Assembly (NCBI GenBank): GCA_023701205.1
Contig: JAMPXJ010000009.1
Span: 30,008 to 94,007 of the forward strand
Source of the DNA: Oligoflexia bacterium
Lineage (GTDB): Bacteria > Bdellovibrionota > UBA1018
Length of the DNA: 64,000 nt
Direction: 5' to 3'
Made by a program: the position numbers and the translations under genes
Notes under the pieces: model-generated
Databases searched by the model: none
Told to the model about the DNA's origin: nothing
The model's input: only the letters and a program-made list of their open reading frames with translations
Shown: positions 6,997-43,166 of the stretch, one piece after another
Position numbering within the stretch: position 1 is the stretch's first letter
Layout of the letters: each line of letters opens with the position of its first letter

Positions 6997-9900
6997 CTCC
7001 CGTCAACGACAAAGACGCCCACGGCTTCGCCGGAAGGCTCGCCCTGGCGTTCGTGAACTCCAAGCTCACCCTGGTCCTCGCGATCGCAAGCCTCCTGCTC
7101 GGCGTCGGCGCGGTCTGGCTCACGCCCAAGGAGGAGGAGCCGCAGATCAGCGTTCCGATAATCGACGTCATGACCCTGGACCCCGGCTCCGAGCCCGCCG
7201 AGATCGAACGACGGGTGACCGAGCCGATCGAGCGCGCTCTCTGGGGAATCGAGGGCGTCGAATACGTCTACTCGGCAAGCTCGCCGGGCGTGAGCCTGGT
7301 GACCGCGCGCTTCCGCGTGGGCGAGCCGATGGAGCCGAGCCTCATCAAGATCCACCACAAGCTCCTCGAGGCCCGCGCGCTCCTGCCCGCGTCCGCGCAG
7401 CCGCCGTCGGTCAAGTCTCATTCGATCGACGACGTTCCTTTCCTGACCCTGACCTTCAGCTCTCGAGACCGCGACGACCACTCGCTCAGGACCCTCGTCG
7501 CCCCGCTCGCGCGCGAGCTCTCGAGCACCCCGGACCTGAGCCGCGTGGAGCTTCTGGGCGGGCTCAGGCGCGCGATTCGCGTCATCGTCGATCCCGCGCG
7601 CCTTGCGGCCCGCGGCGTGGCGCTCCGGGAAGTCGCCGACGCGCTCCGGGCCAACGATGCCAAAGGGCCCGCCGGCAAGAACTGGAGCTCGGAGCAGGTA
7701 CTGGATATCGAGGTCGGTGCCCATCTCCGCTCGGCCGAGGACATCCGCGAGATCGCCATCGCGCAGAAGGGCGGGCGCCTCGTGCAGCTCCGGGATGTCG
7801 CCACCGTGGTCGACGGACCGGAGGAGCGCACGCGCGCCTCTATCCTGGTTTCGCATGGCTCGGTGGACTCGCCCGAGAGGGCGGTTTCGATCGCCTTCGC
7901 CAAGCGCAAGGGCACCAACGTGGTCCTGCTGGCGGATGAGCTGCTCAAGCACGCGCGCACCTTCGGCAAGAACCTCCCGGCCGACGTGCGCGTTTCCGTG
8001 CTGCGCAACTACGGCGACACCGCGGCCGAAAAAGCCAAGGAGCTCATCGAGCACCTGCTGCTGGCCACGCTCTCGGTTTCGGTGCTGATCGCGCTGGCGA
8101 TGGGCTGGCGCGCCTCACTCGTCGTGGCGATCGCGATCCCGGTGACGCTCGCGCTGACGATCGCGATCTACTACTTCCTGGGCTACACCTTGAACCGAGT
8201 GACGCTTTTCGCGCTCATTTTTTCGATCGGCATCCTGGTCGACGACGCGATCGTGGTGGTCGAGAACATCGAGCGCCACCTGCACCTGGACCGCCGCTCG
8301 GGCATCCTGCGCGCGACCCTGCGCGCGGTGAGCGAGGTGGGCAATCCCACGATTCTCGCGACCTTCACCGTGATCGCCGCCATCCTGCCCATGGCGTTCG
8401 TCCGCGGCCTCATGGGCCCGTACATGAAGCCCATTCCCGTGGGCGCAAGCCTGGCGATGGTGCTCTCGCTCTTCGTCGCGTTCATCGTGACCCCCTGGGC
8501 GGCCGTGCGGCTGCTGCGCGCGCCGGAGTCCACCGATCCCTCCGCCCCGGGCCACACGGAGAGTGGCCTGGACCGGATCTACCGGCGGATCACGGGGCGG
8601 CTGCTCGCGCGCAAGCGCCCGGCGCTGCTCTTCGGCGCCGGCACGCTCCTGCTGCTCCTGACCGCGACGTCGTTGCTGTATTTCAAGGCCGTGAAGGTGA
8701 AGATGCTTCCGTTCGACAACAAGGACGAGTTCCAGGTGCTCGTCGACTATCCGCCAACCACCCCGCTCGCGCGGAACGTGGAGTGGTCCACCGCGCTCGC
8801 GCGCGAGCTGGCCGCGGACCCGCGCGTGGAGCACGTCCAGGTTTTCGCGGGCGAGCCCGCCCCCTACTCGTTCTCGGGAATGGTCAAGCACACCTATCTC
8901 CGGCAGGCCGACCATCTGGCCGACCTCCAGGTCAAGCTGACTTCCAAAGAGCACCGTGACGAGGGCTCGCACGCGATCATCTCGGCGCTCCACGCCCGCA
9001 TCACGCGGTTTGGCGAGTCCCACGGCGCCATCACCAAGGTGCTTGAGATCCCGCCCGGCCCGCCGGTGCTGGCCACGATGGTCGCCGAAGTCTACGGACC
9101 GAACGAAGCGACGCGCATCGAAGTCGCCGGCCAGGTCCGGGACATCTTCGCGCGCGAGAAGAGCCTGGTCGACCTGGACACCTCGCTGCGGGAGGCTCGC
9201 CCGCGCCGGATCTATCCGTACGATCAGGCCCGTGGGGGGCAGCTAGGCACCAAGTCCGCGCGGGCACTTGAGGAGAGCCAGCTCCTTTTCGGCGAGGTGC
9301 CGGTCATCGGCCTCGCGGATGTCTCCGGGCCAGAGGATGTCAACGTGATGGCCTCGGTGAAGCAATCCTCCCGCTCCGGCGAGGAGCCCTTCCGCAACCT
9401 GAACGTCCCTTCGTTCGAAGCGGGTGTCGTTCCCCTCGAACGCGTCCTGCTGCCCGCGCGCACGGAAGCCACCCGGACGCTCCATCGCAAGAACCTCAAG
9501 CCCGTCTCCTACGTGACCGCCGAACTCTCGGGCGAGGAAGAAGCCCCGGTCTACGCGATCCTCAAGCTCGATCCCGCGCTCGCCAAAGCGGGCTACGCCA
9601 CGCAGACTGCCGAGGTCCCCTGGAACACCCAGGCTCCGGTCGTGAAGTGGGATGGCGAGTGGTTCATCACCTACGAGGTCTTCCGCGACCTGGGCGGCGC
9701 CTTCGCCGTGGTCCTGGTGCTCATCTACATCCTGGTGCTGGGCTGGTTTCGCAGCTACTCGGTCCCGCTCATCATCATGGCCCCGATCCCCATCAGCCTC
9801 ATCGGGATCATTCCCGGCCACGCGCTCTTTGGCGCCTACTTCACCGCCACGTCGATGATCGGCTTCATCGCGGGCGCCGGCATCATCGTGCGCAACTCGA

Positions 9901-10172
9901 TCATCCTCGTGGACTTCATCGAGCATCAGCTGCGCGAGGGCCTGCCCTTGAAGGAAGCCGTGATCTCAGCCGGGGTACTGCGCTTCCGCCCCATGCTGAT
10001 GACCGCCGCCGCAGTCGTGGTCGGCAGCTCCGTGATGCTCTTTGACCCGATCTTCCAGGGCCTCGCGCTGAGCCTGATCTTCGGTGAGATCGCGGCCACG
10101 CTCCTGAGCCGCATGGCCGTGCCGCTGCTTTACTTCTGGTTCATCGGGCGGAGCCGATTGCGGGCGATGTGA
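6993..10172 (+). CDS. RND-superfamily efflux transporter permease (AcrB/AcrD/AcrF-like)
   Basis: 1059-aa product starting MTPVNDKDAHGFAGRLALAFVNSKLTLVLA, with 12-TM RND architecture and large periplasmic loops. The ORF-track N-terminal extension (6612) is Arg/Pro-rich shadow sequence inside the TolC gene. Confidence 0.9.
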   Translation: MTPVNDKDAHGFAGRLALAFVNSKLTLVLAIASLLLGVGAVWLTPKEEEPQISVPIIDVMTLDPGSEPAEIERRVTEPIERALWGIEGVEYVYSASSPGVSLVTARFRVGEPMEPSLIKIHHKLLEARALLPASAQPPSVKSHSIDDVPFLTLTFSSRDRDDHSLRTLVAPLARELSSTPDLSRVELLGGLRRAIRVIVDPARLAARGVALREVADALRANDAKGPAGKNWSSEQVLDIEVGAHLRSAEDIREIAIAQKGGRLVQLRDVATVVDGPEERTRASILVSHGSVDSPERAVSIAFAKRKGTNVVLLADELLKHARTFGKNLPADVRVSVLRNYGDTAAEKAKELIEHLLLATLSVSVLIALAMGWRASLVVAIAIPVTLALTIAIYYFLGYTLNRVTLFALIFSIGILVDDAIVVVENIERHLHLDRRSGILRATLRAVSEVGNPTILATFTVIAAILPMAFVRGLMGPYMKPIPVGASLAMVLSLFVAFIVTPWAAVRLLRAPESTDPSAPGHTESGLDRIYRRITGRLLARKRPALLFGAGTLLLLLTATSLLYFKAVKVKMLPFDNKDEFQVLVDYPPTTPLARNVEWSTALARELAADPRVEHVQVFAGEPAPYSFSGMVKHTYLRQADHLADLQVKLTSKEHRDEGSHAIISALHARITRFGESHGAITKVLEIPPGPPVLATMVAEVYGPNEATRIEVAGQVRDIFAREKSLVDLDTSLREARPRRIYPYDQARGGQLGTKSARALEESQLLFGEVPVIGLADVSGPEDVNVMASVKQSSRSGEEPFRNLNVPSFEAGVVPLERVLLPARTEATRTLHRKNLKPVSYVTAELSGEEEAPVYAILKLDPALAKAGYATQTAEVPWNTQAPVVKWDGEWFITYEVFRDLGGAFAVVLVLIYILVLGWFRSYSVPLIIMAPIPISLIGIIPGHALFGAYFTATSMIGFIAGAGIIVRNSIILVDFIEHQLREGLPLKEAVISAGVLRFRPMLMTAAAVVVGSSVMLFDPIFQGLALSLIFGEIAATLLSRMAVPLLYFWFIGRSRLRAM

Positions 10173-10402
10173 GGGTGGAACAACACCGCGTTGATACACA
10201 CACGGGGAGAGTCTTGGCGCTCGCCGAACAGATTTTCCGGATCGGATTCGATAAAATTGAGGTCGATCGGCAATTCGTGACGGTTTACAAGGAGACTCAC
10301 ACCATTTCCGAAGAAGCTGTCGCGCCGCTCGCATCCCTGATTGCCCAGGTCCTGCCGCTGTTGCTCCAGATCCAAAAACACGCTCCGCCGGCGGAGTCGT
10401 AG
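10169..10402 (+). CDS. Hypothetical 77-aa protein, possibly translationally coupled to the RND gene
   Basis: GTG overlaps the RND stop (GTGA at 10169-10172). Third-position G+C looks coding-like. No recognisable domain and not hydrophobic. Confidence 0.3.
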   Translation: MRVEQHRVDTHTGRVLALAEQIFRIGFDKIEVDRQFVTVYKETHTISEEAVAPLASLIAQVLPLLLQIQKHAPPAES

Positions 10403-26166: not shown

Positions 26167-27003
26167 ATGCCCAAGATCCTCGTCGCCACCCCCGATGCCG
26201 AAGAGCTCGAGCTGATCCTGCAGACGCTCGCCCGCGAGAAGCACGCGGTCACCCGCGCGACCAACGCGCAGGAGGCATTGTCGCGGCTGCGCACCGAGAA
26301 GTTCGACGCCATCTTCTCGGACACGCGCATGCCCCGGCTGAGCGGCACGGACCTGGTGAACGCGCTGATGACCCTGACGATCAACACCGAGACGCCGGTC
26401 GTCGCCATGAGTGCCCACGAGGAGGACTTCCAGCTCCTGCTCATCACGCATGCCAAGGAGAAGATCCACTTCCTCACCAAGCCGCTCACGATCGAAGCGA
26501 TCGTCAAGAGCCTGCGCGCCGCGCTCCCCTCGAAGCTGAACGTCGATTTCGTCAATCCGGTGCTCGACGCCACGATCCATACGATCAGCTCGATGACCGG
26601 CCTCGCGGTCAATCCCGGCAAGCCCTATGTGAAGAAACGCGGCGAGCCCAGCGGCGATATCAGCGGAATCGTCGGCGTGACGAGCGCGGGCTTCAAGGGT
26701 ACGATCGCCCTCACCTTCCCGTCGACGACTTTCCTGACGGTCGTCTCCAAGATGCTCGGAATGGAATTCACCGAGATCAACGAGGAGAACAAGGACGCGG
26801 TCACCGAGCTGCTCAACATCATCTTCGGGCAGGCCAGAAAGACCCTGAACGCCCGCGGCCTCGGGATCCAGTCGGCCATCCCCACCATCATCACCGGCGT
26901 GGGCCATGCCGTGGACCACAAGTCCACCTACCCCTGCCTCTGCCTGGAGTTCGAGATCCCCGACGTCGGCCGCTTCAAGGTCGAGGTCTGCGTCCGGGCC
27001 TGA
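26167..27003 (+). CDS. Response-regulator receiver domain fused to a CheX-like domain
   Basis: REC motifs (FSDTRMP, VVAMSAH, LTKP). The C-terminal half (VNPVLDATIHTISSMTG ... ELLNIIFGQA) resembles the CheX phosphatase fold. Confidence 0.65.
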   Translation: MPKILVATPDAEELELILQTLAREKHAVTRATNAQEALSRLRTEKFDAIFSDTRMPRLSGTDLVNALMTLTINTETPVVAMSAHEEDFQLLLITHAKEKIHFLTKPLTIEAIVKSLRAALPSKLNVDFVNPVLDATIHTISSMTGLAVNPGKPYVKKRGEPSGDISGIVGVTSAGFKGTIALTFPSTTFLTVVSKMLGMEFTEINEENKDAVTELLNIIFGQARKTLNARGLGIQSAIPTIITGVGHAVDHKSTYPCLCLEFEIPDVGRFKVEVCVRA

Positions 27004-27074: not shown

Positions 27075-27149
27075 GCGAGTGTAGCTCAGCGGGAGAGCAC
27101 GCCCTTCACACGGGCGGGGTCACAGGTTCAATCCCTGTCACTCGCACCA
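27075..27149 (+). tRNA. tRNA-Val (anticodon CAC), CCA encoded
   Basis: Hand-folded cloverleaf: acceptor GCGAGTG/CACTCGC, D arm GCTC-AGCGGGA-GAGC, anticodon arm CGCCC-TTCACAC-GGGCG, variable GGGTC, T arm ACAGG-TTCAATC-CCTGT, then A-CCA. Confidence 0.9.
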
Positions 27150-27601: not shown

Positions 27602-28675
27602 TCAAGCCGCGCCGTCACAAAGATCGGCGGCAACCTCTACACCACGAGCTCGAAACTGCACGCTCAGGTCCTTGCACCAAGCTGTAGACACTAAACTCGC
27701 CTGCCTCAATACCTCGGAGGCTAAATCCGAATAGCCAGAGAATTCCGGCAGCCCGGCAATTGCCTTGAGATAAACCATTTCAACCAGTCCAAACCCTAGA
27801 GAAACAGCCGAGCCCCAAAGAGGCTGATTAACCGCCGCCGAGGCCAAGTACGGATCAGGCAGTTCCATTGCCTCAGGCATCAGTGGATTCGCAAGCCATC
27901 CCTGCAGAAGCGCGACCGTAGCCGGATAGTGTTTCGAGTAAATGCTCGATTTCACCTTTCGTTCGAACTGGTACCGCAACGTAGGGGCATCCTCGACGAG
28001 GTTAACGTACCGGTTCACGTCAATTGAAGCGTCGAACCAGTCATATTTGCCGATCAGCGGCTCTCCCAGGTAAAGAGCGGCAAGCAAATTGGCCGTCCCC
28101 TCTAGGACACCGCTCTGCCCGGCTAACTTCCGCCAGTCCTTCGGCGGGTACTCAATGAGTTCCGAAACACTCTTTTTGAGAAGATGCAAATGCAAGGCAT
28201 GCCCGATCTCATGCGCAATTATAGTTGGATCAAGTGCAGGCTGCGCAAAACTAAGGGCAACCTCCGCTGAACTCATAGTCCCACCGCCCGGCTCACCTTG
28301 CGAGTCACCTTTTGCGAGATGAATCACCACCCCGCGGAGCTCGGGCTGCCCCAAACCCTTCAAAATTGAGTTGTAATGTCGAACCTGGGCCGTCGCATAA
28401 TAATAGGTATGCACCCAGGCCATCCGATCGTCCTGGGTCGGAAAACAGAAACAGCCACTCTCGTCAGGAGTAAATTCGGTCGGGATGTTAACTATGGAAA
28501 CGGCCTCGTTCCTCAAGACACCACCTTGGAATTCCGGAAGCCTGACCTTGGTCGTTGTCGCCCCCTCAGTTTTCCACACACCGATCATGCCCATTGGGCT
28601 ATCGAGTGCCATGATCTCTTGGGTGCTCAAGACCAAACTGCATACGAAAAGCGCAAAAGCTCGTACAAAGCTCAT
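27602..28675 (-). CDS. Secreted HExxH zinc-metalloprotease-like protein (gluzincin-like)
   Basis: Signal peptide. IIAHEIGHALHLH is followed by GVLEGTANLLA, a candidate third-ligand Glu. G+C looks lower than in the flanks. Confidence 0.6.
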   Translation of the reverse strand: MSFVRAFALFVCSLVLSTQEIMALDSPMGMIGVWKTEGATTTKVRLPEFQGGVLRNEAVSIVNIPTEFTPDESGCFCFPTQDDRMAWVHTYYYATAQVRHYNSILKGLGQPELRGVVIHLAKGDSQGEPGGGTMSSAEVALSFAQPALDPTIIAHEIGHALHLHLLKKSVSELIEYPPKDWRKLAGQSGVLEGTANLLAALYLGEPLIGKYDWFDASIDVNRYVNLVEDAPTLRYQFERKVKSSIYSKHYPATVALLQGWLANPLMPEAMELPDPYLASAAVNQPLWGSAVSLGFGLVEMVYLKAIAGLPEFSGYSDLASEVLRQASLVSTAWCKDLSVQFRARGVEVAADLCDGAA

Positions 28676-29472: not shown

Positions 29473-30011
29473 TCATCGCCGCTCAGTCGGCCTCAACCTC
29501 CGAATGCGTATCCAAAGAAGCGCCTTCGGCAGGCCATTGATATTCAGCGCGGCCATGCATTCGTCCAGTCGTCCCGGCCTCTCGCCGAGGCGCTGGACGG
29601 CGCGGCCGAGATCGCGCTCGATGCTCTCACCGTAGGCGGCGGCGGCTTTCGCGATCGCGCGGGTCAGCAACGGGCGCGAAGGCTCGAGCATCGCAAGATC
29701 GATGAGATCCCGGCTGAAGACTGAATCGTCCGACCAGCGATCCGAGTTCGCGAGAAGCTTGATTGCGGCCATATCGAGCGCGGCCAGCGTCACGACCCCG
29801 CAAATACGATCTTTCGGTCCTGGTCTTTCCAGCTCGATCCTGGCCTCCAGGACGATCTCAAACTTGATTTGGGTTTTCGCCACCTGCAGCATCGTGCGAA
29901 TCCCATACTGGTCGGAGCGCAGCTCGCCCGCTGCGCTCAGCTCCGCGCCGTCTCAGCATCGAGCGCCTGAAGGATCGTGGCGATTCGGACGTGGTGGTCT
30001 CGACTAAACAA
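29473..30011 (-). pseudogene. Possible frameshifted AbiEii/DUF1814-like nucleotidyltransferase toxin remnant downstream of the XRE gene
   Basis: The intact 139-aa ORF (29473-29892) carries AAIKLLANSDRWSDDSVFSRDLIDLAML, like the K...A...R...RDlyDl segment of AbiEii. Upstream coding-like sequence (LFSRDHHVRIATILQALDAETA from TTG 30011) lies in another frame and ends at the TGA at 29937-29939, suggesting a frameshift. Confidence 0.35.
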
Positions 30012-30489
30012 GGAGTCGCTCCCGCCCAAACGCCGCGAGGAGCGCCTCCAGGAATTCCCTTTCCCGGGAATCCATTTTCTTGAGCTCCACGTGTCGCCAG
30101 TTGCGTTCGTAAATCTTCAGCGCTTCTTCGGGACTGATTACGGTCGTTTTCTTGAGCTGCCAGGCCAGCCGCCTCAGCTGCGGATAATCGGCCAGGCGGA
30201 TTTCTGGTGGAACTGCGGCGGCCCGTGCGCCCCGCTTGCGCTTGCGGCCGCGCGGATCCACGAGCTCCAGTTCCAACCCCAGCGCGAAGATCACGCTTAC
30301 GTAGGCGCCGCCCGTCACCGATGGCTCACCCCGCTCGATTCGGTGGAGCGTGACCCGTGACATTCCGGCGGCCTCCGCGGTTGCGACCGCGCTGATGCCA
30401 AGCTGCTTCCGCCGGGCGCGCAGCCGCTCGCCCAGTTCACGAAGCCGATTTTCGATCACGGTACCGATGTGAGGAGCTGCGGCCGGCAT
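30004..30489 (-). CDS. XRE-family helix-turn-helix regulator (antitoxin-like, with C-terminal extension)
   Basis: LGERLRARRKQLGISAVATAEAAGMSRVTLHRIERGE is a canonical Cro/C1 HTH. An AT-rich upstream region with short inverted repeats lies at 30502-30537. Confidence 0.8.
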   Translation of the reverse strand: MPAAAPHIGTVIENRLRELGERLRARRKQLGISAVATAEAAGMSRVTLHRIERGEPSVTGGAYVSVIFALGLELELVDPRGRKRKRGARAAAVPPEIRLADYPQLRRLAWQLKKTTVISPEEALKIYERNWRHVELKKMDSREREFLEALLAAFGRERLLV

Positions 30490-30568: not shown

Positions 30569-31477
30569 TCACTGATTGCCGCAAGAGCGAAGCTCGGCGG
30601 CCAGGAGCGGCAGCACGCGTTCATCGATCAATCGACGATGGACTTGCTCCGCATCCGAGACCAGCTGCCTCGGGAGCGGCTGGCCCCGCTCTTCGTAGGA
30701 ACTGCCCCCGTACTTGAAGCTGGACATCTGCGAGCTGACCTCACTGAGGCGATCCGTCAGGCAGGCTGAAACCTGGCAGGGCTCACCGCGCGCACGGCGA
30801 CGGGGACTCCGTTGGGCCGCGCCGCTCAGGGGGCAACTGTCCCGGGACGCCCGGATCAGCCCATTCAACGCCTTCGCATAGTAGCTGAACCAACGGACAT
30901 CGCGCCGAAGCTCATGCATCCCCAGCTCCGCCTTCGTGAGGTCATAGGTCTTGCCATGATACTCCTCGAGTTCCTCGGCAATGCGCCGAACCACGAAGTC
31001 CAGATCGCCCTCCGCATCGGGCCACCGGGTGCTGATCAGATCCTGCCGAAGCTCTTCCATCCGCGAAGGGGTCGCGAGAATGAGCCTCTCCTCGATGAGA
31101 AAGGCCTTGAACTCCTCATTCAGCTTCTGTGCCTCCGGGCCTCCATGACCTCGATCCAGGGTGTGGGAGATATAGTCCTCGAACCCTTTGATGAGCTTCT
31201 TGTACTTCTTGAACCTCTTCTCATCGATGTCCTTGTAAATCCTCAGCAACGACTCCAGCGTGAAGAGCGGGCCTCGCAGCTGCATGGCCACTTGCACGCC
31301 ATGCTCCTTGTTGCGGACCTCCTTCAGGGCCGCCGAAACACGGTCAACGGAAGGGAGAAACAGGTCGAGGGGAGTCAGGGGCTCGGCTCGCCCACCCTGG
31401 GTGGCGAAAACCAGGGACCCGCCGAGCACCGCGCCGGAAATCACGAACGTCGACAAAAACAACTTCAACTTCTTCAT
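30569..31477 (-). CDS. Exported helical protein, paralogue 1 (CHAD-like His/Arg motifs)
   Basis: Signal peptide. Motifs LRGPLFTLESLLRIY, LIKGFEDY and MHELRRDVRWFSYYAKALNGLI. Four conserved C-terminal Cys. Clearly alignable with the adjacent 327-aa protein. Confidence 0.6.
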   Translation of the reverse strand: MKKLKLFLSTFVISGAVLGGSLVFATQGGRAEPLTPLDLFLPSVDRVSAALKEVRNKEHGVQVAMQLRGPLFTLESLLRIYKDIDEKRFKKYKKLIKGFEDYISHTLDRGHGGPEAQKLNEEFKAFLIEERLILATPSRMEELRQDLISTRWPDAEGDLDFVVRRIAEELEEYHGKTYDLTKAELGMHELRRDVRWFSYYAKALNGLIRASRDSCPLSGAAQRSPRRRARGEPCQVSACLTDRLSEVSSQMSSFKYGGSSYEERGQPLPRQLVSDAEQVHRRLIDERVLPLLAAELRSCGNQ

Positions 31478-31498
31478 AATATTCCACTCGCTTCCGGA

Positions 31499-32482
31499 TT
31501 ATCTCACGCAGCTTTGAAGGCTCTCGACCAGAGCCGGGAGAAGGTTCGTATCTCGCATCTCTTTGTAAAGCCGATGCGCTTCGGCGTAGAGCTGACGATC
31601 GCCGTGACCACCATCGATCGCCTCGCCGCCCTGGCCTTCGTCCTTGATATTGCCCAGGTCACTCACGAGCTTCGCGACGCCATTGTACACGCAGGCGGGA
31701 ATGGCGCAGGGACTTGGCTCATTGCCGGTGGCGAGGGGCGCGCCGTACTTGCCTTCGATGCGAGCGCTGCCGCGCGGACCCCGCAGCGTGCAACTCATCG
31801 CATCGGAGACCTGGATCAGGCCTCCCAGCGCCTTCACCTCGTAGGGAAACCAGCGGAGCTCCTTTCGAAGGTCATGGATGCCTCTTTCCAGCTGATTCAT
31901 GTCCCAGGCGGTGTCGTTGATCTTCTGGAAGTCCCTCGCGATCTCATTCAGAACCATCGCGCGGTCCTCCTCGTAGCTCATCCAGCGCGCGTCCTGCAGA
32001 TCGCGCTTGAGGCGCTCGATGGCCGGCAGGCCAGGCGTCAGCCATTCGCGAGACGAGAGAAAACCGCTGAATCGGTGACTCGCCTCCCGCTGTCTCCTCC
32101 TGAGCTCTTCGAGCTTCGCCGGACTCGCACCCCGCTGGTGGGCGAAATCGATCATCTCCCTGCTGTAGGCGTAAGCGCCGACGGCATCTTCGAATTCCTT
32201 GATCAGCCGGCGATTCCTCTCGAACTCATTCCCGTAGTGCCGACTATAGATATTGAAGAGCACTTCGAGCCTGAAAAGCTGGCTCCGAATATCGGATGCC
32301 GTAAGGCGGTCCGGCGCCGATGCCGGATCATCCTGGGACCGAAGGGTCGCCTCCACCCTTCGAAGCGGCTCCAGAAACCTTTCAGCGGGACTCGGCAGCG
32401 GAGCTGCCTGGCCCGGCATCAGCTGCGCTGCGATCGCTCCCACTACACAAAAAAATCCACCCGTAATGACTCCGCGTCTCAT
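31499..32482 (-). CDS. Exported helical protein, paralogue 2 (CHAD-like His/Arg motifs)
   Basis: N-terminal hydrophobic segment. Motifs IRSQLFRLEVLFNIY, LIKEFEDA and IHDLRKELRWFPYEVKALGGLI. The C-terminal Cys pattern is conserved with paralogue 1. Confidence 0.6.
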   Translation of the reverse strand: MRRGVITGGFFCVVGAIAAQLMPGQAAPLPSPAERFLEPLRRVEATLRSQDDPASAPDRLTASDIRSQLFRLEVLFNIYSRHYGNEFERNRRLIKEFEDAVGAYAYSREMIDFAHQRGASPAKLEELRRRQREASHRFSGFLSSREWLTPGLPAIERLKRDLQDARWMSYEEDRAMVLNEIARDFQKINDTAWDMNQLERGIHDLRKELRWFPYEVKALGGLIQVSDAMSCTLRGPRGSARIEGKYGAPLATGNEPSPCAIPACVYNGVAKLVSDLGNIKDEGQGGEAIDGGHGDRQLYAEAHRLYKEMRDTNLLPALVESLQSCVR

Positions 32483-32706
32483 AAGACCTAGTGTGAACGT
32501 GACACACTAAATAGTCAACTCTTTTTGTCTGGTATTTTGTCGAGTATTATTGAAGAACTTATTCTTTTTATTTCAAGTATTTAGCTTCCGAAAAGAGGGT
32601 GTTCCCCTCGGTTCGGCGCAACCGGGCTGCCTTAGATTTAACAACTGGGCCACTGATTCCGAAGAGAATCCGAGGTGCTCGTCGCAACGAAACTCACAAG
32701 GAATCC

Positions 32707-35064
32707 ATGATCAGCCTATTGCTCCTGTCGCTTTCGATCGCTCATGCTTCCGCGCAAGCGGCCGGTCCCATCCAGGGCACCGACTGCCCCTATTTCTACC
32801 GCTTGATCGCTCCCATCGTCGAAAACGGCAACACCACCACGCTCCGGCAGGAAAAGAAGTGGGTGGTCACCCAAGGCGAGCTCGACAAGTTCATGAGCTC
32901 CCTGCGCACCGACTTCGGGGAGGTCCCCCTGCGCGACACCCCTGCGCCCGGCACGGTGAATGTCACGATCACTGACTATGCTCGGGATGTCGTCCTGGGA
33001 AGAAACGCCGACGGGAAAAAGCTTTCCGCGAAGATCCGCGTACGCCGCTACGGCAGTCGGCCGGAAAATGGCTCGCCCGACGACATCACCATCGGCGAGC
33101 AATACCGAACCCGTTCCAAGGTCGAGTTCAAGATCCAGCACCCCGAGCACGATGGCGTGGTCTTCAAGCCCGGCATCGTCATGGAAAACGCCGACATCGA
33201 CCTTCTCCTGGGCGGAAAGGACTCGTTCTACGCGAACATCGCCGAAGTCCGGAAGCGCACCCAGGCCCTCGCCAAACCCGACGGCCAGGGAGGCACGAAG
33301 CTCGTCAACGCGGACTCCCGGGAAGTCGATGAGATGTTCGATGCGATGCGCTCGCTGTACGACGACATGTCCCGGCCCGGAAGCCTCGGAGAATTTCCCG
33401 AAGGCCTGAACCGCATCCACCGGGTCCGTTACGAGCGCGACGCCTACCAGCTCGACGTACCGGACCTGCTCAGCGGCAAGAAAATCAAGGTGCAGATCAC
33501 CGTGGACAGAAACGTCAACTTCTTTCATCCCGCGGCTCCCGACGAGGCCATCAGCTCTTACCCTGCCGACTGGCGGGTCATCGAGGTCAAGATTCCGCTG
33601 CAATACTCCATTATGAGCGACGAGCAGCTGGGCAAGGCGGCTCCGAAACTGCTCGAGCTCCGCCGGCACACCCAGGCCCTCAAGCAGGTTGCCGACATGC
33701 CGGAGGGCAAGGGCAAAGCCGGAGGCTCGAAGCTGATCATCCGCGACAAGCTCGAGCGCGAAGGAATCGCCCTGAACGAGGACGATGTCGCCGATATGTT
33801 CAGGAACGCCGAGGGATACCTTCCGCCAGGCACCCTTGGCGAGATCAAGCACACGCTCAAGCTGACGCTCATGGAAAAGCCCGTCAGCGACTACTTCCCG
33901 ACGCACGGCCAGGAGCTCCGACGCATCCGCGACACCGTGATCAACAGACCGATCCCGACAAAAGAGGGGCTGGCTGCGCTCCGGGACGACATCAATACGC
34001 TGGTCGACCTGCACTTCAACGAGCTCTCGCGGATGAAACAGCGGGGAGTCCTGTCGGAAGACGGAAAGAAGTACTTCGAGCTCCTGAAGGCCTTCAAGAC
34101 CTTCAACCGGAAGTACCAGAACAGCTGGCTCACCCACGTCATCCAGGAACATTACTCCGCCTTCATCTCCGCCAAGCCCGGAAACTACACGGTGGACGAC
34201 CTGTATCGCTCCATCATCGATCAATTCGTCTTCGAGCAAGGCGCACTTATCAAGACCGATATCGCCTTGAAGGAGAGGCTCCGAAAGTGGATTGAGCCCC
34301 GCGAGTGGGCGAAGCGCCGCCGGGCGGTAACGGATTTCGCCCGGGAGCGAGCCGCGAAAACCTATATGAGCCACCTGGTGGCGATCCCACTGAATATCGG
34401 CGGACTGATGGGGTACGCCGCTCTGTGTGCCCACATGGAGTGGAAATGTCCGATCGTCAACCAAACCCCCAATCCCGAAAAACGCAGCCAGGCGAGGGAA
34501 TCCTGGAAAGAGAGCCGGGAGAAGATCACGACCCTGCATGCCGAGCTCCAAGCCATGCAGGGCCGCCTGAAAGACGACCTCCCCGCCGGTGACGACGCGG
34601 CGGAACGATGGAGGTCCACCGCTCCGAAGATCCGGGAGCTCGGCCTGCGGTATCAACAGGCCATGGACCCGGTGATCCTGAAGGATCAGCATCTGGCCGA
34701 CGAGATGAAGCTCGAGGTCTCGAACGCCCAGCGGATCTTCCAGGTCGCCAAGACCAACCTGCAGGAAGCCAAGAGAGCTCACGCCGAAGCCCTGAAGGCA
34801 AAGAAGCCCCGGAATGCCGAACTGGAACGCAGGGCCGAAGCGGTCGCGGCGCGCGAGGAAGAGTACGCTATCGCCCTCGCCGGGCTTGCGGCCATGGACA
34901 TCTTTCTTCCCAAATTCAGGGGCCTCGAGGAAATTTCCGAGAAGGATTTCGCCCCCCTTTCGAATTTCACCTCGTTCAACAGGCACTTCACCGACTCGTT
35001 GCAATCCGTCACGACCAATGTCGGACGCTTCATCAATCAGGCTGACAAGGAGCTATGGAAATGA
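32707..35064 (+). CDS. Exported VTC/CYTH-like (triphosphate tunnel metalloenzyme) domain protein with a long helical C-terminal region
   Basis: ATG at 32707 gives signal peptide MISLLLLSLSIAHASA. Tunnel-strand-like motifs QEKKWVV, VNVTITDYARD, KIRVRRYG, SKVEFKIQ, RVRYERDAYQLD, KVQITVDRNVNFF and WRVIEVKIP. The C-terminal roughly 450 aa are helical with one hydrophobic segment (VAIPLNIGGLMGYAALCA) and a coiled-coil tail. Confidence 0.6.
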   Translation: MISLLLLSLSIAHASAQAAGPIQGTDCPYFYRLIAPIVENGNTTTLRQEKKWVVTQGELDKFMSSLRTDFGEVPLRDTPAPGTVNVTITDYARDVVLGRNADGKKLSAKIRVRRYGSRPENGSPDDITIGEQYRTRSKVEFKIQHPEHDGVVFKPGIVMENADIDLLLGGKDSFYANIAEVRKRTQALAKPDGQGGTKLVNADSREVDEMFDAMRSLYDDMSRPGSLGEFPEGLNRIHRVRYERDAYQLDVPDLLSGKKIKVQITVDRNVNFFHPAAPDEAISSYPADWRVIEVKIPLQYSIMSDEQLGKAAPKLLELRRHTQALKQVADMPEGKGKAGGSKLIIRDKLEREGIALNEDDVADMFRNAEGYLPPGTLGEIKHTLKLTLMEKPVSDYFPTHGQELRRIRDTVINRPIPTKEGLAALRDDINTLVDLHFNELSRMKQRGVLSEDGKKYFELLKAFKTFNRKYQNSWLTHVIQEHYSAFISAKPGNYTVDDLYRSIIDQFVFEQGALIKTDIALKERLRKWIEPREWAKRRRAVTDFARERAAKTYMSHLVAIPLNIGGLMGYAALCAHMEWKCPIVNQTPNPEKRSQARESWKESREKITTLHAELQAMQGRLKDDLPAGDDAAERWRSTAPKIRELGLRYQQAMDPVILKDQHLADEMKLEVSNAQRIFQVAKTNLQEAKRAHAEALKAKKPRNAELERRAEAVAAREEEYAIALAGLAAMDIFLPKFRGLEEISEKDFAPLSNFTSFNRHFTDSLQSVTTNVGRFINQADKELWK

Positions 35065-36218
35065 ACCACTGGCTATTCACTGTTTCAATGCTTCTTCCTG
35101 CTCTCGCGATGTCCACTTTCGCGGATGACAACTGGAATCCGGAGACCGGCCCGGCGGACGTCGCCGCGTTGACGAAGAGTCTCGAGGAGGTCAAAAAAGG
35201 GATGAACGAGCTCAAGCCCGTCAAGCCCGACTGCGACTCGCAAAGCGACAACACGCCACCCTCGAAGGTCCCTCTCTTCCAATCCGATGAGATTCTCAAG
35301 GTCGAGATGCGAGGCATCTTCCCGATTCGTGATACCATCCAGCCGCGACCCGGAAAAATCATCGTCGGACATAACGGCCAGGAGCATACGACCTCTGCCG
35401 ATTTCGTCGGTCGCGGCCAATATCGAAGGAGCTTGTGCTCTGAATTCCCGCCTTTCAAGATCATCCTGCCCGCAAGTGATCAAAAAGGATCGCTCTTCAA
35501 AGGCGGAGACCGGGACCTCAAGTTCGTTACCCATTGCGGCAGTAAACCCGAGAATGCCGAGCGGGTCCGGGAGGAATACACCATTTACAAAGTGCTCTCG
35601 GCTGCCGGCCTCCTGAGCCTCAAAGTCAGGCTGGCCGAGGTCACCTACACCAATTCGCAGGGAACCCAGACCGCGACAGGACCTGGATTTTTCATCGAGA
35701 ATCTCAAGGATGCCGCCAAGCGCTGGGAGGGCAGAGAACCCAAGGCGCTTTCCGCTGAGCAAGATGGAAACTACTTCGGCGGCGTCGCTCGAGTGAGCGA
35801 GCTGATCGCTACGAACAATGACTTTAGCGTCGAAGCCGAACACAACACCAGGATCGTCCGGGATGCCAAGGGAAATCGCCGCTATGCCATCCCTTATGAC
35901 TTTGATCTCACGGATCTGATCGTGGGCAAGAACTACGGGAAAAACACCTGGGATTCCCAGGACGTTGAGAAGAAAATCCGCAACCTGCTGCTCGAAAACG
36001 GCTCGGCAAGCGCCCGCGAGGCGCTCGAGACCGCTACCCGTAATCGCAAATCCGTTCACAGAGCCATCGACGAAAGCCCGATCTCCGAGGCGAACAAGCG
36101 GAAATTCCACGGCCGAATGGACTTCTTCTTCGATGCCGCCGAAGCGGTGCTCCAGGGTGCCCCTCCTCAAGTGAGAGTCGTTCCTGATGAGCTGCGTGGG
36201 ACAGCCAAGTTCCAATGA
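35061..36218 (+). CDS. Exported CotH-like atypical kinase-fold protein
   Basis: AAGGAG 8 nt upstream of ATG 35061; overlaps the VTC gene end. Signal peptide. CotH-like segments FVGRGQYRRSLCSEFPPFKIIL, EEYTIYKVLSAAGLLSLKVRLAEVTYTN, GFFIENL and AEHNTRIVRDAKGNRRYAIPYDFDLTD. Confidence 0.5.
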   Translation: MNHWLFTVSMLLPALAMSTFADDNWNPETGPADVAALTKSLEEVKKGMNELKPVKPDCDSQSDNTPPSKVPLFQSDEILKVEMRGIFPIRDTIQPRPGKIIVGHNGQEHTTSADFVGRGQYRRSLCSEFPPFKIILPASDQKGSLFKGGDRDLKFVTHCGSKPENAERVREEYTIYKVLSAAGLLSLKVRLAEVTYTNSQGTQTATGPGFFIENLKDAAKRWEGREPKALSAEQDGNYFGGVARVSELIATNNDFSVEAEHNTRIVRDAKGNRRYAIPYDFDLTDLIVGKNYGKNTWDSQDVEKKIRNLLLENGSASAREALETATRNRKSVHRAIDESPISEANKRKFHGRMDFFFDAAEAVLQGAPPQVRVVPDELRGTAKFQ

Positions 36219-36229
36219 CGGAGGGCATT

Positions 36230-37429
36230 ATGAAAAGGAAGAGCGCTACCTTGAAGGCCCTGTTTCTTGGGCTGCTGTGGATCGCCGCACCCGCATGGGC
36301 GGAAGCCCCGGCCAGCATCACCGCGGAGCCCCCCGTCGTGGCGGTCGGCGATATCCACGGAGATTTGAGCGCACTCGTCACCATCCTTGGCGGCCAAGGG
36401 CTGATCGATGCCGAGGGCAACTGGAAAGGGGGTTCCAGCCAGTTGGTATTCGTGGGGGATCTCAACGATCGCGGGCCTGATACCCGCTACATCATGGACT
36501 ATGTGATGGATCTGGAAAAGCAGGCCCAGGCCGCCGGAGGCAAGATCCAAACCCTTCTGGGCAATCATGAGGTGATGGTCGCGAGCGGAGATGTGCGCTA
36601 TGTGGCTCCCGAAGAGCTCAAGCCCTTCGAGGGCTTCCAGCCCATGGGCGTGACTTCCGTGGCCCTGAAAAGAATGAGGCAAGCGCATCGCAATAGCATC
36701 GCGAACAACGAAATCGCCGCGAAGGTTTCGATGCACGAGGAAAAGTGCCTGGAAATGCGTCGAAAGGGCCTTGCCGATTGCGAGCCTTTGCGGAAATCGG
36801 AGCTAGAACCCAGGGTCATTCCCGACGAGGAGATCAAGCCTTACGCGGGAATCGGCGCCGCGATGATCGGCAACTCGCCTTATGCCAAGTGGCTGCGCGG
36901 GCGCCAGGCGATCACGAAAGTGGGAGATACGCTCTTCGTGCACGCGGGTATCAGCGAGGACTTCCTGAAAACCAATGCGAATGAGCTCAACAAAATGGTC
37001 GCGAACTGGGTGAAATACCACCAAGGCGTGGGACCGCGACCCAAGAAGCACACGAGCTGGGTCCTGGAGGAGCAGGGTCCGCTCTGGGATCGTCAGCTGG
37101 CCATGGGAAAACTTCCCGAAGAAACACTCGACGCAGTACTGAAGGCTTACGGAGCCAAACGCCTCGTGATCGGCCATACGGTCCAGACAAGAGGGATCAT
37201 GCTCCGCTATGATGGAAAGGTGATCCTGATCGATACGGGCAATTCCGCTGTCTATAACGGCCCCCTCTCCGCGCTGGAGATCCGGGGAGAACAGCTGAGA
37301 GGCAAGTACTTCCCGCGCCCGGATGGGCCTGCGGCGCTGAGAGACCAGCTGATCGCGCGCTACAACCTGGAAAAGACAATGACTCCGGCCTTGAAGTCCG
37401 TCCCACAGCTGAGTCCGCCTTGTCGATGA
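36230..37429 (+). CDS. Exported PPP-family metallophosphoesterase (Ser/Thr-phosphatase-like)
   Basis: GGAGGG upstream of ATG 36230 (an alternative ATG at 36215 overlaps the previous stop as ATGA). Signal peptide ending AWA. GDIHGD, GDLNDRG and GNHE motifs. Confidence 0.8.
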   Translation: MKRKSATLKALFLGLLWIAAPAWAEAPASITAEPPVVAVGDIHGDLSALVTILGGQGLIDAEGNWKGGSSQLVFVGDLNDRGPDTRYIMDYVMDLEKQAQAAGGKIQTLLGNHEVMVASGDVRYVAPEELKPFEGFQPMGVTSVALKRMRQAHRNSIANNEIAAKVSMHEEKCLEMRRKGLADCEPLRKSELEPRVIPDEEIKPYAGIGAAMIGNSPYAKWLRGRQAITKVGDTLFVHAGISEDFLKTNANELNKMVANWVKYHQGVGPRPKKHTSWVLEEQGPLWDRQLAMGKLPEETLDAVLKAYGAKRLVIGHTVQTRGIMLRYDGKVILIDTGNSAVYNGPLSALEIRGEQLRGKYFPRPDGPAALRDQLIARYNLEKTMTPALKSVPQLSPPCR

Positions 37430-40233: not shown

Positions 40234-41598
40234 TTACCTCGCCGCCGCGACATTCCCGGCCGCAGCCTCGCGAGAAGGCGTCTCGGCGGCTGGTTCCGCC
40301 ACCGCGGCTTTGGCCTCGGCGCCGCTCACCTGCGGCAGCTCGCCAGCAGGAGCCTGCGCGCCCAGCGTGGAGGCCGCCGCTGCGCCTTCGATCGCCTTCT
40401 CGAGCGCGGCCTTGGCATCCGGATTCGCCTGCAGGAATTTGAAGGAATCCCCGAGCGTCGCGCGAACGTCCCCCACCGTCTTGACCTTGAAGCACAGGAC
40501 ATTCGCCTCAAGCACTCCGGCGCCGGGCAGCGGCGTCTTGACCTTCAGGTCGATGCTCCGAGCGGACTCGCCCAGGAAAGCCTTGTTCTCCGTGATCTCA
40601 TAGGCTCCCACCGGCATCGGCAAGGAGCTATCCAGCAGGCTGGAGCGATAGCGCGTGGGCGAGATCGTGCAGCGCGGCTTCTCGGCATCCAGGCTCTCGC
40701 CTTTGTAGGTGTACTGAGTCAGGAGCACATCGCTCGCTCCGATGCGCTTGCCGCCCTGGTAGAGCGAGCCGGTGAAATTCCCGTTGGGCTTGATGATCTG
40801 AAAGTCGGGCGCCGTGATCTGAACGCCATCCGAGGTGGTGAGCGAGGAAAGAGCGGCCTCCGACGAAGCTTCCACTCCGATCTCTCGGGCCTCGTCCTCC
40901 AGGCGCTTCTTCTCGGCTTCGAGCTTGAGCCGCTTCTCCTCTTCCTCTTTAGCGGCCTTTTTGGCGGCTTCCTGCTTGAAGGTATCGGACTGACGGATGG
41001 ATTTAAAGATATCGAGCGGACCTTCGTTCTTCTTGAGGACAAAAAGCCCTTCGCCCAGCGTCTGCCGGAACTGCTCGATCGAAGGCTCGCCCTTGAAATT
41101 CTTGCAATCCATATTCAGATGCAGCGAAAGCGGGCTCAGCTCCATGGTCGACTGGGGCATCTTGCTGTCGCGCTTGGTTGCGCTCGCGTTCTGGATCGAG
41201 GTGGACGCCTTGATCTTGATGCCCGTCTTCTTGAAGCCGAAGAGCGAGAAATCACTGAACTCGATCTCCATGAGGGGGACTTCCTGATCCTTCTGGAAAG
41301 GCGCGAATTCGAGATAGTCCTGAAACATGGAGCTCGCCATCAGCTTGCAATAGGGATCCCCGCTCAAGGCGTTCTCCGCGACTGACCTGCCGTTCTGCAG
41401 GAAAAGCGCGCCGGAATCCCCGAACTTCATGGGAAGGGAGTCCTTCATCACCAGCGTGTGCCCGGAATTGACCGCGGCTCGCACGCTCTGCGGGCTCTCC
41501 GGGCCGGCCAGGCCCACCGAAGGCCAGATGAGGCACACGACCGTCAGGGAGGAGGGAAGGAGGGACCGGGACAAAGACGACAGGGATTTCTCTCTCAT
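40234..41598 (-). CDS. Hypothetical exported protein with internal duplication and a central Lys/Glu-rich coiled-coil
   Basis: Start taken at MREKSLSS (41598). Signal-like LTVVCLIWPSVGLAG. Its two halves share NMDCKNFKGEPSIEQFRQTLGEGLFVLKK and NVLCFKVKTVGDVRATLGDSFKFLQ. Confidence 0.5.
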   Translation of the reverse strand: MREKSLSSLSRSLLPSSLTVVCLIWPSVGLAGPESPQSVRAAVNSGHTLVMKDSLPMKFGDSGALFLQNGRSVAENALSGDPYCKLMASSMFQDYLEFAPFQKDQEVPLMEIEFSDFSLFGFKKTGIKIKASTSIQNASATKRDSKMPQSTMELSPLSLHLNMDCKNFKGEPSIEQFRQTLGEGLFVLKKNEGPLDIFKSIRQSDTFKQEAAKKAAKEEEEKRLKLEAEKKRLEDEAREIGVEASSEAALSSLTTSDGVQITAPDFQIIKPNGNFTGSLYQGGKRIGASDVLLTQYTYKGESLDAEKPRCTISPTRYRSSLLDSSLPMPVGAYEITENKAFLGESARSIDLKVKTPLPGAGVLEANVLCFKVKTVGDVRATLGDSFKFLQANPDAKAALEKAIEGAAAASTLGAQAPAGELPQVSGAEAKAAVAEPAAETPSREAAAGNVAAAR

Positions 41599-41689
41599 GC
41601 CTCTTCGAATTGCAGGCGGCATACCGAGCCATGGTTCCGTTGGGATCCTATTAGCTTCAGCTCAGGCAATAACCCTGTCTAAAGATTAG

Positions 41690-42748
41690 TCAGAGGAAAA
41701 GCTGACGTGCCGCCCCGCCCTTGAAGTACCGAGCGCTTTCGCCGAACTGCAGGAAGGAGACCCGCCGGTGGTGATTGGGACAAAGAAATCTCAAGTTCTC
41801 CAGGCTCGTTATCCCTCCTAACGACCAAGGTGTTTGATGATCCACCTGCAACGCGTGTTTTGACTGACAGCGTTTGTGAGTGCTCGGGTCGATATACGCG
41901 CCTTGGTAGCCGTGCTTCCGGATCAGCTCGTGCTGCAGCGGCTGTGAAGGCGCGCGACGCACGAGAACCTTGGGTGCCGTGGGTGTTTTGATCATTTCAG
42001 TCGGCTGCCTTTCCGCCAGCTCTGTCGGCTGCATCCCAAGCTTCGCATCCTTCCTGGCCTTCGCCCGCCGGGCCTTCTCTTCGGGATGATGGCGCTCACG
42101 GTACTCGGTCGCCAGAACGTCGATGAGCTCCCCCATCGAAAGCCCCGGATGAGAATGCGCGAGAAGCCCCCGGACATCCTGGAGCTTTTCAAGCAGCTCT
42201 TCGGTAGCGACGAAGCGCACTTCAGAGAGATTCTCCGTCAGAGGCCGAATCCGGTCTCGAGGCACTTTCACCGAATCAGGAAAACGCCGCGCGGTCTCCC
42301 GCTCAGCCTGGGAGCAGCTCATTCCGCAAATCTCCGCCAAAAGCTCCGCCAGCTCCGGATCAGAAAGCTTCTCCCGGCAAGCGCAGCCCTGAGCGATCTC
42401 AAGAAGCGTGAAATTGAGCTTCCCGCTTTCCAATCCGATTTTGATTTCCGGAATGCGTTTAAGTAACCGTGCCGCGCGAACCCGCTGCTCCGCCCGCCAT
42501 TCTTCCATCCGATACTGACCGACCAGAAAAGATCGGAGAGAGGAGTACTCAAAGAAAAGCTTCCGGCGATCCAGCTCCACCAGATACTCAAGCTGGCGGA
42601 CGAGGCTCTCGCGCTCGTCGATGAACTGCGCTCCGGCGCCGGCTCGAACATCAGCCAGCCTCCCTAAGTCAAACCAAGCCGTTTTAAGGCATTTCCCGAG
42701 GCAGTTTCGAAAACGAAGACTCCTCTGTCGAAAATAAATTAGACCCAT
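41690..42748 (-). CDS. HNH endonuclease-domain protein (DUF222-like N-terminal region)
   Basis: C-terminal HALQVDHQTPWSLGGITSLENLRFLCPNHHRRV. Start chosen at MGLIYF (42748). The region looks lower in G+C. Confidence 0.65.
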   Translation of the reverse strand: MGLIYFRQRSLRFRNCLGKCLKTAWFDLGRLADVRAGAGAQFIDERESLVRQLEYLVELDRRKLFFEYSSLRSFLVGQYRMEEWRAEQRVRAARLLKRIPEIKIGLESGKLNFTLLEIAQGCACREKLSDPELAELLAEICGMSCSQAERETARRFPDSVKVPRDRIRPLTENLSEVRFVATEELLEKLQDVRGLLAHSHPGLSMGELIDVLATEYRERHHPEEKARRAKARKDAKLGMQPTELAERQPTEMIKTPTAPKVLVRRAPSQPLQHELIRKHGYQGAYIDPSTHKRCQSKHALQVDHQTPWSLGGITSLENLRFLCPNHHRRVSFLQFGESARYFKGGAARQLFL

Positions 42749-43166
42749 GTCAAGAACATGTTCGGGAAATCCCGATCCCGCCCCTTCGCCGCGAAGAGAC
42801 CGGACCGAGCAGAGAACCGCCACCACCGAAACACGCAGAAGCGCCTCACCCGCCGCGAGGTCTTCACCAGACGTCGGAAGAACGCCATGACAGTAGCACT
42901 GACGAGAGCTAAACCCGTCAATAGCCGACGGCGCGCACGTAGGTCCTCCTCGACACATTGTGAGACGCGCACGCTTGAACGACAATCAAGGCATGTTGAG
43001 ACTGGCTACCTTGACGCTGCTCTTTCTGATCCTCGGAACGCTGAACAGCCGCGCCGACGAGCAGCGCGCCGAAGGCGCCTCCGGGTCATCCGCGGTCGCC
43101 GCGCGCGCTTGATCCCTTCGCGATCACTTCGCCGCTTCCGAGGCGATGCCACCACCTCGGGCGGCT

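Follow-up and report, generated by a model that had tools for sequence, protein, structure and literature searches.

What could a bacterium accomplish with a triphosphate tunnel enzyme, a kinase, and a phosphatase that all appear to leave its cytoplasm? This question is raised by five neighbouring genes, here named parA, parB, P3, P4, and P5, in a 64,000-nucleotide stretch of contig JAMPXJ010000009.1 (Oligoflexia bacterium, assembly GCA_023701205.1), which as a whole is referred to as the window. Related loci that we inspected in other genomes and metagenomes carry L-numbers (L001, L005, and so on). Our data indicate that the exported VTC-like/CotH-like/phosphatase gene set represents a form of the VTC-CotH cluster that is secreted in its entirety and has not been described before, since all of its components are predicted to be exported, DUF4956 was not detected in the window, the VTC-type domain is fused to a helical region, and a phosphatase and Cys-rich proteins have been added. 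We hold the family assignments of the proteins with high confidence. The broader reading, that the region encodes an exported set of phospho-transfer enzymes with relatives in Bdellovibrionota-type genomes and that these enzymes act together outside the cytoplasm, is in our judgement somewhat short of an even chance.

P3 (32707-35064, plus strand) is a 785-amino-acid open reading frame (ORF) that joins a VTC-type tunnel domain (32824-33711, plus strand; about residues 40-335) to a helical C-terminal half (33712-35064, plus strand; residues 336-785). Direct searches of Pfam, NCBIfam, and PDB sequences with the single P3 sequence returned no match, and a word-index homologue search recovered only P3 itself. 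At a threshold of E ≤ 1e-3, a full HMMER search with P3 residues 1-400 recovered representatives of 102 clusters, the majority of them about 350 residues long. In the resulting alignment R113, E140, K142, K154, Y242, R244, D267, and K295 are invariant, R47, E49, K51, R111, and E293 are conserved in at least 90% of the sequences, and the tunnel motif set (RxExK, RxR, ExK, YxR, and ExK) is conserved across the P3 family. The window domain itself scores 15.9 bits against the Pfam VTC profile (PF09359; E 0.0095), under the gathering cut-off of 23 bits. The same profile matches 17 of 78 P3 homologues, with a best E-value of 1.9e-8, and a consensus of the 78 family members reaches 36.2 bits (E 6e-9, cut-off 23), though such a consensus is artificial and can inflate the score. 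The AlphaFold2 (AF2) model of P3 has a mean predicted local distance difference test (pLDDT) value of 79, with most of the tunnel domain above 90. When this model was compared with the PDB by Foldseek, E-values of 1e-3 or below were obtained only for the yeast VTC complex and Vtc4 (9umg_E at 3.4e-6, 7ytj_D, and 3g3r_B; probability 1.0). A P3 family profile also ranked Vtc4 and Vtc2 first among PDB entries, with the YxR motifs aligned (Y-N-R in Vtc4).

Together, the alignments and the model indicate that the N-terminal domain of P3 is a VTC-type triphosphate tunnel that is Vtc4-like and looks catalytically intact. The original prediction, made from the letters of the DNA, had assigned the 785-residue protein to the VTC and triphosphate tunnel metalloenzyme (TTM) group, and the Foldseek matches to Vtc4, the profile ranking, and the Pfam VTC matches of homologues and consensus all bear this out. 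P3 shares with yeast Vtc4 (3G3Q/3G3R, 7YTJ, and 9UMG) the same tunnel fold and RxR/YxR/ExK-type residues, while sequence identity is about 12-13%. Furthermore, yeast Vtc4 faces the cytosol, is coupled to a membrane channel, and is under SPX regulation, whereas P3 is predicted to be exported and has neither an SPX nor a multi-pass membrane domain. The family comprises approximately 100 clusters, at 50% identity, of predicted secreted VTC-like proteins that escape detection by Pfam and NCBIfam from single sequences.

The C-terminal half of P3 is modelled as all-helical, with pLDDT below 50 at residues 513-565. Residues 557-575 (34375-34431) form a hydrophobic 19-mer with a mean Kyte-Doolittle hydropathy of 1.71, followed by a C-x6-C motif that extends to residue 581. 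Both features are kept in the closest long-form relatives, P0023 and P0024, while the relative P0034 has C-x7-C and no segment that scores as hydrophobic. Residues 403-608 are conserved in L014 and L015 at 32-37% identity, and at L024:8493-11470 the C-terminal half is encoded as a separate secreted 410-residue gene directly downstream of a 582-residue VTC-like gene (E 3e-10). We considered a likeness to ClyA-family alpha-pore-forming toxins; the hydrophobic segment is conserved, the local pLDDT is below 50, and Foldseek matched the helical half only weakly to the pore-forming toxin AhlC (probability 0.44-0.63, E 0.27-0.67, TM-score 0.26). Residues 557-581 may serve as a membrane anchor or insertion module.

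P4 (35061-36218, plus strand, with an alternative ATG at 35055; 385 residues, or 387 from the alternative ATG) was initially called a CotH-like kinase. Single-sequence searches of Pfam, NCBIfam, and PDB sequences with P4 gave no match; none of the 20 homologues that we recovered carries a Pfam label, and a further homologue search with the P4 alignment added few new proteins, again without Pfam labels. The AF2 model of P4 (pLDDT 81) resembled kinase structures in the PDB, among them HipT, with Foldseek probabilities up to 1.0 and E-values of about 3e-3. Against the BFVD viral models it matched a protein labelled CotH kinase (E 3.7e-5, probability 1.0) and one labelled "Spore coat protein H kinase fold" (probability 0.99), and these CotH-labelled phage models outrank canonical kinases. 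The Pfam CotH profile (PF08757) gives sub-threshold matches in two of 21 P4 homologues (E 0.021 and 0.15), and in both the match is placed exactly on the N-x-D...HN...PYDFD segment. Consensus sequences of the P4 family reach 38.7 and 33.2 bits with this profile (cut-off 23.8), and these too are artificial sequences that can inflate a score; the second-best Pfam family, HipA_2, reaches 24.6 bits, under its own cut-off.

P4 shares with Bacillus CotH (5JD9) and PF08757 a kinase-like fold and the co-linear motifs RG..R, GFFIE/GVYLQLE, N-x-D...HN, and IP[WY]D[YF]D. In contrast, 5JD9 is absent from the best 50 PDB structural matches of P4, and P4 differs from it in its predicted export, its conserved Cys pair, and its tandem amplification in relatives. 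A comparison of the P4 profile with B. cereus CotH 5JD9, whose sequence was read from a PDB alignment to a B. subtilis CotH query, was not significant (6.7 bits; hhalign probability 1.8%), and the two local alignments it produced, likewise not significant, fall on the co-linear motifs. All 39 P4-family members that we compared (the 21 plus 18 further paralogues) retain K154, E172, D254, N262, and D280. D282 does not vary among the 21 homologues, but four L015 paralogues have N at this position and one paralogue has a gap there. The Cys pair C126/C159 is invariant in the 21 homologues and is found in the further paralogues. From sequence and model we conclude that P4 most plausibly is a divergent branch of the CotH kinase family that lies beyond the reach of single-sequence Pfam searches; the early CotH assignment is upheld in this narrower form by the consensus and viral-model matches. 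Since the catalytic Lys/Glu and Asp and the metal-binding Asn/Asp are retained, enzymes of the P4 family look active. The P4 family would then be a secreted CotH-like branch that Pfam and NCBIfam miss from single sequences.

P5 (36230-37429, plus strand, with an alternative start at 36215; 399 residues, or 404 from the alternative start) is the only one of the five proteins with a direct Pfam or NCBIfam match, to Metallophos at 40.6 bits (cut-off 21.5). Among PDB entries, Shewanella phosphatase (1V73/2Z72) was matched at 7e-34, RLPH2 at 9e-7, and an ApaH-type enzyme at 0.02. The motifs GDIHGD, GDLNDRG, and GNHE are present in the P5 translation, so that P5, like the Shewanella-like phosphatases 1V73/2Z72, has all three metal-binding motifs of the PPP family. 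It differs from them in that an insert divides its match into two stretches and in that it shares an operon with a CotH-like kinase. By these sequence matches P5 is classed as a Shewanella-like PPP phosphatase, which agrees with the PPP phosphatase assignment made at the outset and makes it more exact. Yeast Ppn2, a bacterial-type, ApaH-like PPP enzyme and an endopolyphosphatase (PMC8220851), was considered as a Shewanella-like link to P5 and dropped on account of its ApaH-like classification.

The two remaining genes lie on the minus strand and encode exported-type N-termini: parA (30569-31477), a helical-looking ORF of 302 residues, and parB (31499-32482), its 327-residue paralogue. They are 34% identical, with four aligned Cys. 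We found two relatives only, both in L005 (12412-13482 and 13470-14876), while a metagenome scan with the paralogue alignment found none and Pfam, PDB, and PADLOC gave no match. The original prediction had described both proteins as CHAD-like. The sole support for this is a sub-threshold match of Pfam CHAD (PF05235) to the homologue at L005:12412-13482 (16.9 bits, E 0.0063; threshold 25.6 bits). Pfam found no CHAD match in parA, parB, or the family consensus, a PDB profile search was negative, and hhalign against E. coli YgiF, which combines CYTH and CHAD, gave a probability of 0.08%. We therefore do not retain the CHAD assignment.

We asked whether the N-termini of these proteins support their export, as had been claimed for all five. 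In all five, a single hydrophobic segment at the N-terminus (residues 4-26 in parA) precedes an AxA-like site of the cleavage type, built of small residues, as in MKRKSATLKALFLGLLWIAAPAWA/EAPA of P5. The same N-terminal feature is present in 85 of 94 full-length VTC-like representatives and in 25 of 26 P4-like homologues, several of the exceptions being truncated sequences. The segments and their recurrence in the two families are in keeping with the claim, and the signal-peptide-like character of the N-termini suggests that all five products are exported. The invariant Cys pair of P4 and the four aligned Cys of the paralogues fit export to an oxidising compartment.

All five ORFs are present where they had been placed, and every motif quoted for them at the outset can be read in the translations. 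P3 ends with the TGA at 35062-35064. The 10-nucleotide overlap proposed between P3 and P4 exists if P4 starts at the in-frame ATG 35055, but ATG 35061 is an alternative start, with AAGGAG 7 nucleotides upstream, and would reduce it to an ATGA overlap. At the next junction, the ATGA at 36215-36218 is real, but ATG 36230, which follows GGAGGG, is the likelier start of P5. For P3, P4, and P5, lengths of 785, 385, and 399 residues come from an independent gene call on a second assembly of this DNA, and the three genes are tightly packed whichever starts are used. P3 and parB diverge from a 224-nucleotide spacer (32483-32706), the presumed site of both promoters, and AAGGA precedes the P3 ATG at 32707. 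The spacer is AT-rich as described, with a GC content of 0.44 (0.33 in the first 120 nucleotides) versus 0.635 for the window. A scan of the region for consensus promoters and terminators found sites no commoner than in shuffled sequence. GC content falls to 0.55-0.61 over about 27-37 kb of the window, and GC at third codon positions (GC3) is 0.69-0.81 in the five genes versus 0.86-0.93 in neighbouring genes. The view that the cluster occupies an atypical region adjacent to a tRNA gene (tRNA-Val, 27075-27149) thus holds for composition but not for the marks of an island, as a search of the window for an integrase and for att-like repeats of the end of tRNA-Val found neither.

How widely is this gene set shared? 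Our comparison covered nine loci, the window among them, in which the VTC-like gene is either long or close, a small sample that lies partly on short contigs. In the window the partners of the VTC-like gene are P4, P5, parA, and parB. L005, from a Bdellovibrionales metagenome-assembled genome (MAG), has one P4-like gene and two paralogue-like genes; L014 has two P4-like genes divergent from the long VTC-like gene; L015/L016 have twelve P4-like genes and one P5-like gene (44% identity). L024 has two P4-like genes and one P5-like gene (46%), in P4-then-P5 order with a 4-nucleotide overlap and divergent from the long VTC-like gene, and L004, L022, L023, and L025 have no partners. P4-like genes thus occur in five of nine loci, P5-like genes in three, and the paralogues in two. 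The complete five-gene set, expected to recur in other genomes if it forms a unit, was not found elsewhere. What is conserved is a core made up of the long VTC-like gene and at least one P4-like kinase, which the phosphatase or the paralogues join in some loci only. That the gene set is a chance artefact is excluded, because we found families of homologues, structure models of good confidence, and gene neighbourhoods that recur.

Several of the related loci have features of their own. L015:1-22319 (JGI 3300037420 Ga0395906_0000142) holds twelve tandem secreted P4/CotH-like paralogues in 22 kb, an array that flanks the P5-like phosphatase and the long VTC-like gene. All of these paralogues keep K154, E172, D254, N262, D280, and the Cys pair, with N at D282 in four. 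Judged from its sequences, the twelve-gene array looks like a diversifying effector array. At L017:4964-7777 (GCA_030012885.1, 68% GC) a secreted P4-like gene is paired with a Metallophos phosphatase gene (34% identity to P5) and adjoins a DUF4956 gene, the only DUF4956 among the inspected loci and a link between the P4 family and the classical VTC/DUF4956/CotH system. A secreted P4-like and Metallophos phosphatase pair is also found at L018:6001-8293 (GCA_015222055.1), in a Bacteroidetes MAG of 27% GC. The GC contents of both genomes lie beyond the range typical of Bdellovibrionota. In Bdellovibrio and Pseudobdellovibrio (L006-L011, for example L008:4545-7894), a short secreted VTC-like gene of about 345 residues lies in a conserved operon directly downstream of a secreted gene with a DUF2252/APH-like kinase fold, together with a secreted protein of 410-460 residues. 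The VTC-like/P4-like and VTC-like/DUF2252-like pairings make an exported tunnel enzyme with an exported kinase-fold protein a recurring theme.

It had been guessed that the host might be a predator. In a pattern-based genome scan with a trimmed 10-sequence VTC-like alignment, which can miss divergent relatives outside Bdellovibrionota, all eight named genomes that hold the VTC-like family are Bdellovibrionota. The guess agrees with this family distribution, from which it is inferred. Bdellovibrionota-type lineages are known for digesting other bacteria from within. A metagenome scan with the VTC-like alignment found two loci, both partnerless, and nothing usable came from plasmid and phage sequences when these were searched by tblastn with P3, P4, and two homologues of P4.

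The closest known system is the VTC-domain/DUF4956/CotH gene cluster of Gram-positive bacteria (PMC2879425, PMC7112168). The two have in common a VTC-type gene next to a CotH-family kinase gene, an arrangement found in the window, L005, L014, L015/L016, and L024. In Clostridium perfringens, no signal peptide was predicted for the VTC and CotH proteins of NELoc-2, and each VTC gene adjoins a gene for a small membrane protein (PMC2879425), whereas the VTC-like protein and the kinase of the window both have signal-peptide-like N-termini. Unlike the VTC-DUF4956-CotH cluster, the window fuses its VTC domain to a 450-residue helical half, adds a Shewanella-like phosphatase and two Cys-rich paralogues, and has a kinase too divergent for single-sequence Pfam searches. 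DUF4956 was not found in the window by tblastn with one DUF4956 query or by Pfam scans of the neighbouring genes. The predicted departure from the Gram-positive arrangement is thus supported, as is, by the one-query tblastn, the predicted lack of DUF4956 in the window. A full-text literature search for Bdellovibrio with CotH or triphosphate tunnel returned nothing relevant, and DUF4956 itself is named in only five papers.

The surroundings of the cluster contain several further genes. Directly upstream, on the minus strand, lies an AbiEi (30004-30489) and AbiEii (29473-29892) toxin-antitoxin pair, of which AbiEii is probably truncated, since its ORF spans only profile positions 96-206 of 220. 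Between this pair and tRNA-Val, in the lowest-GC part of the window, a 357-residue ORF (27602-28675, minus strand) has a signal-peptide-like start and a HEIGH zinc-protease-like motif and no Pfam or PADLOC match. Immediately upstream of tRNA-Val, 26167-27003 (plus strand) encodes a protein in which a response-regulator receiver is joined to a CheX phosphatase domain; L010 has a relative with 35% identity (9672-10217), close to the VTC-like gene of that locus. Just past pepN, a secreted-looking 462-residue ORFan without a Pfam match (40234-41622, minus strand) adjoins a gene for a 431-residue protein with a C-terminal HNH nuclease domain (41690-42985, minus strand).

What might these proteins do together? 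We propose phosphoanhydride chemistry combined with phosphorylation and dephosphorylation outside the cytoplasm, a mechanism that we put forward tentatively and regard as doubtful in its particulars. The three enzymes would share one extracytoplasmic compartment that offers phosphoanhydride substrates; if the host is a predator, the most plausible site would be invaded or lysed prey, where ATP and polyphosphate (polyP) exist. There the P3 tunnel enzyme would cleave or build phosphoanhydride chains (ATP/NTP, triphosphate, or polyP), the CotH-like kinase would add phosphate to prey or envelope targets, and the phosphatase would remove it. The helical, hydrophobic-tipped C-terminal half of P3 might tether or deliver the tunnel domain at a membrane, and the two Cys-rich paralogues might act as accessory proteins.

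Several observations weigh against joint action of these enzymes in prey. Four of the nine long-form loci (L004, L022, L023, and L025) are partnerless within about 5-10 kb, and several P4-like genes stand alone (L001, L002, and L019). The signal peptides were judged from hydropathy and by-eye inspection of cleavage sites rather than by a trained predictor, and a Sec signal alone leads to the producer's periplasm, not into prey. The GC content of the window (63.5%) is well above that of related loci (50-55%), so that a predatory lifestyle is suggested only by the distribution of the family. Yeast Vtc4, moreover, needs cytosolic ATP, and ATP is not expected outside the cytoplasm.

The system might instead scavenge phosphate, with an exported tunnel hydrolase (a tri- or polyphosphatase of the CYTH/YgiF type) and the PPP phosphatase freeing orthophosphate from polyP and phosphoesters of prey or the environment and the kinase-like protein playing an accessory or binding role. 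ATP-independent hydrolysis suits an extracytoplasmic site, all components are predicted to be exported, triphosphatases are known among the TTM enzymes (the annotation of E. coli ygiF reads "inorganic triphosphatase"), and the bacterial-type PPP enzyme Ppn2 shows that an ApaH-like member of that family can be an endopolyphosphatase (PMC8220851). But the structural and profile matches of P3 are specific to the Vtc4/Vtc2 polymerase branch and not to CYTH hydrolases, and P5 is Shewanella-like rather than ApaH-like. Scavenging would also leave unexplained why no other partner is as constant as the catalytically intact-looking kinases and why these have been amplified as much as 12-fold, and we consider it unlikely. 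We give a similarly low weight to a housekeeping envelope system, in which the proteins would add phosphate to envelope proteins or glycans and remove it again, within the periplasm of the producer itself or at its surface, and would play no part in prey. In its favour, a Sec signal taken alone points to the periplasm, lineages that do not look predatory also have P4-like/P5-like pairs (the L018 Bacteroidetes MAG and the 68%-GC genome of L017 with DUF4956), and a like role has been proposed for the CotH/VTC/DUF4956 accessory genes that lie beside Gram-positive pel (exopolysaccharide) loci (PMC7112168). Against it, no polysaccharide genes lie beside the cluster in the window, the exported VTC-like family was found among named genomes only in Bdellovibrionota, the twelve tandem paralogues look more like an effector or variable repertoire than a housekeeping enzyme, and the source of energy in the periplasm would be left unexplained.

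The position beside tRNA-Val, the lower GC and GC3, and the AbiEi/AbiEii pair directly upstream (29473-30489) could also point to cargo of a mobile or defence island, for example an anti-phage kinase and phosphatase with a tunnel enzyme that processes nucleotides. This we regard as very improbable: none of the five proteins matches a PADLOC model, export signals on all five would be unusual for defence enzymes with cytoplasmic targets, no integrase or att-like repeat of the tRNA end is present, AbiEii is probably truncated, and elsewhere the cluster sits in different, non-island contexts.

We therefore continue to favour an exported phospho-transfer enzyme set acting outside the cytoplasm. A more far-reaching form of it, which we rate as a long shot, is that extracytoplasmic phosphorylation is self-contained, with the tunnel enzyme (polyP + ADP <-> ATP, or another donor) fuelling the CotH-like kinases. 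The site would be the periplasm or the inside of prey, the secreted CotH-like kinases would be diversifying, and the Shewanella-like phosphatase would be the eraser. In the literature on the Gram-positive linkage of VTC and CotH we found no mechanism proposed for it. If true, self-contained phosphorylation would explain that linkage as a general partnership in which a tunnel enzyme feeds an atypical kinase, and these small soluble proteins would be suited to direct study of the coupling. For the polyP field, P3 would represent an unexpected case of a Vtc4-like enzyme outside the cytoplasm. For predator biology, the P4 family may provide a candidate effector family, in which the kinase is amplified up to twelve-fold.

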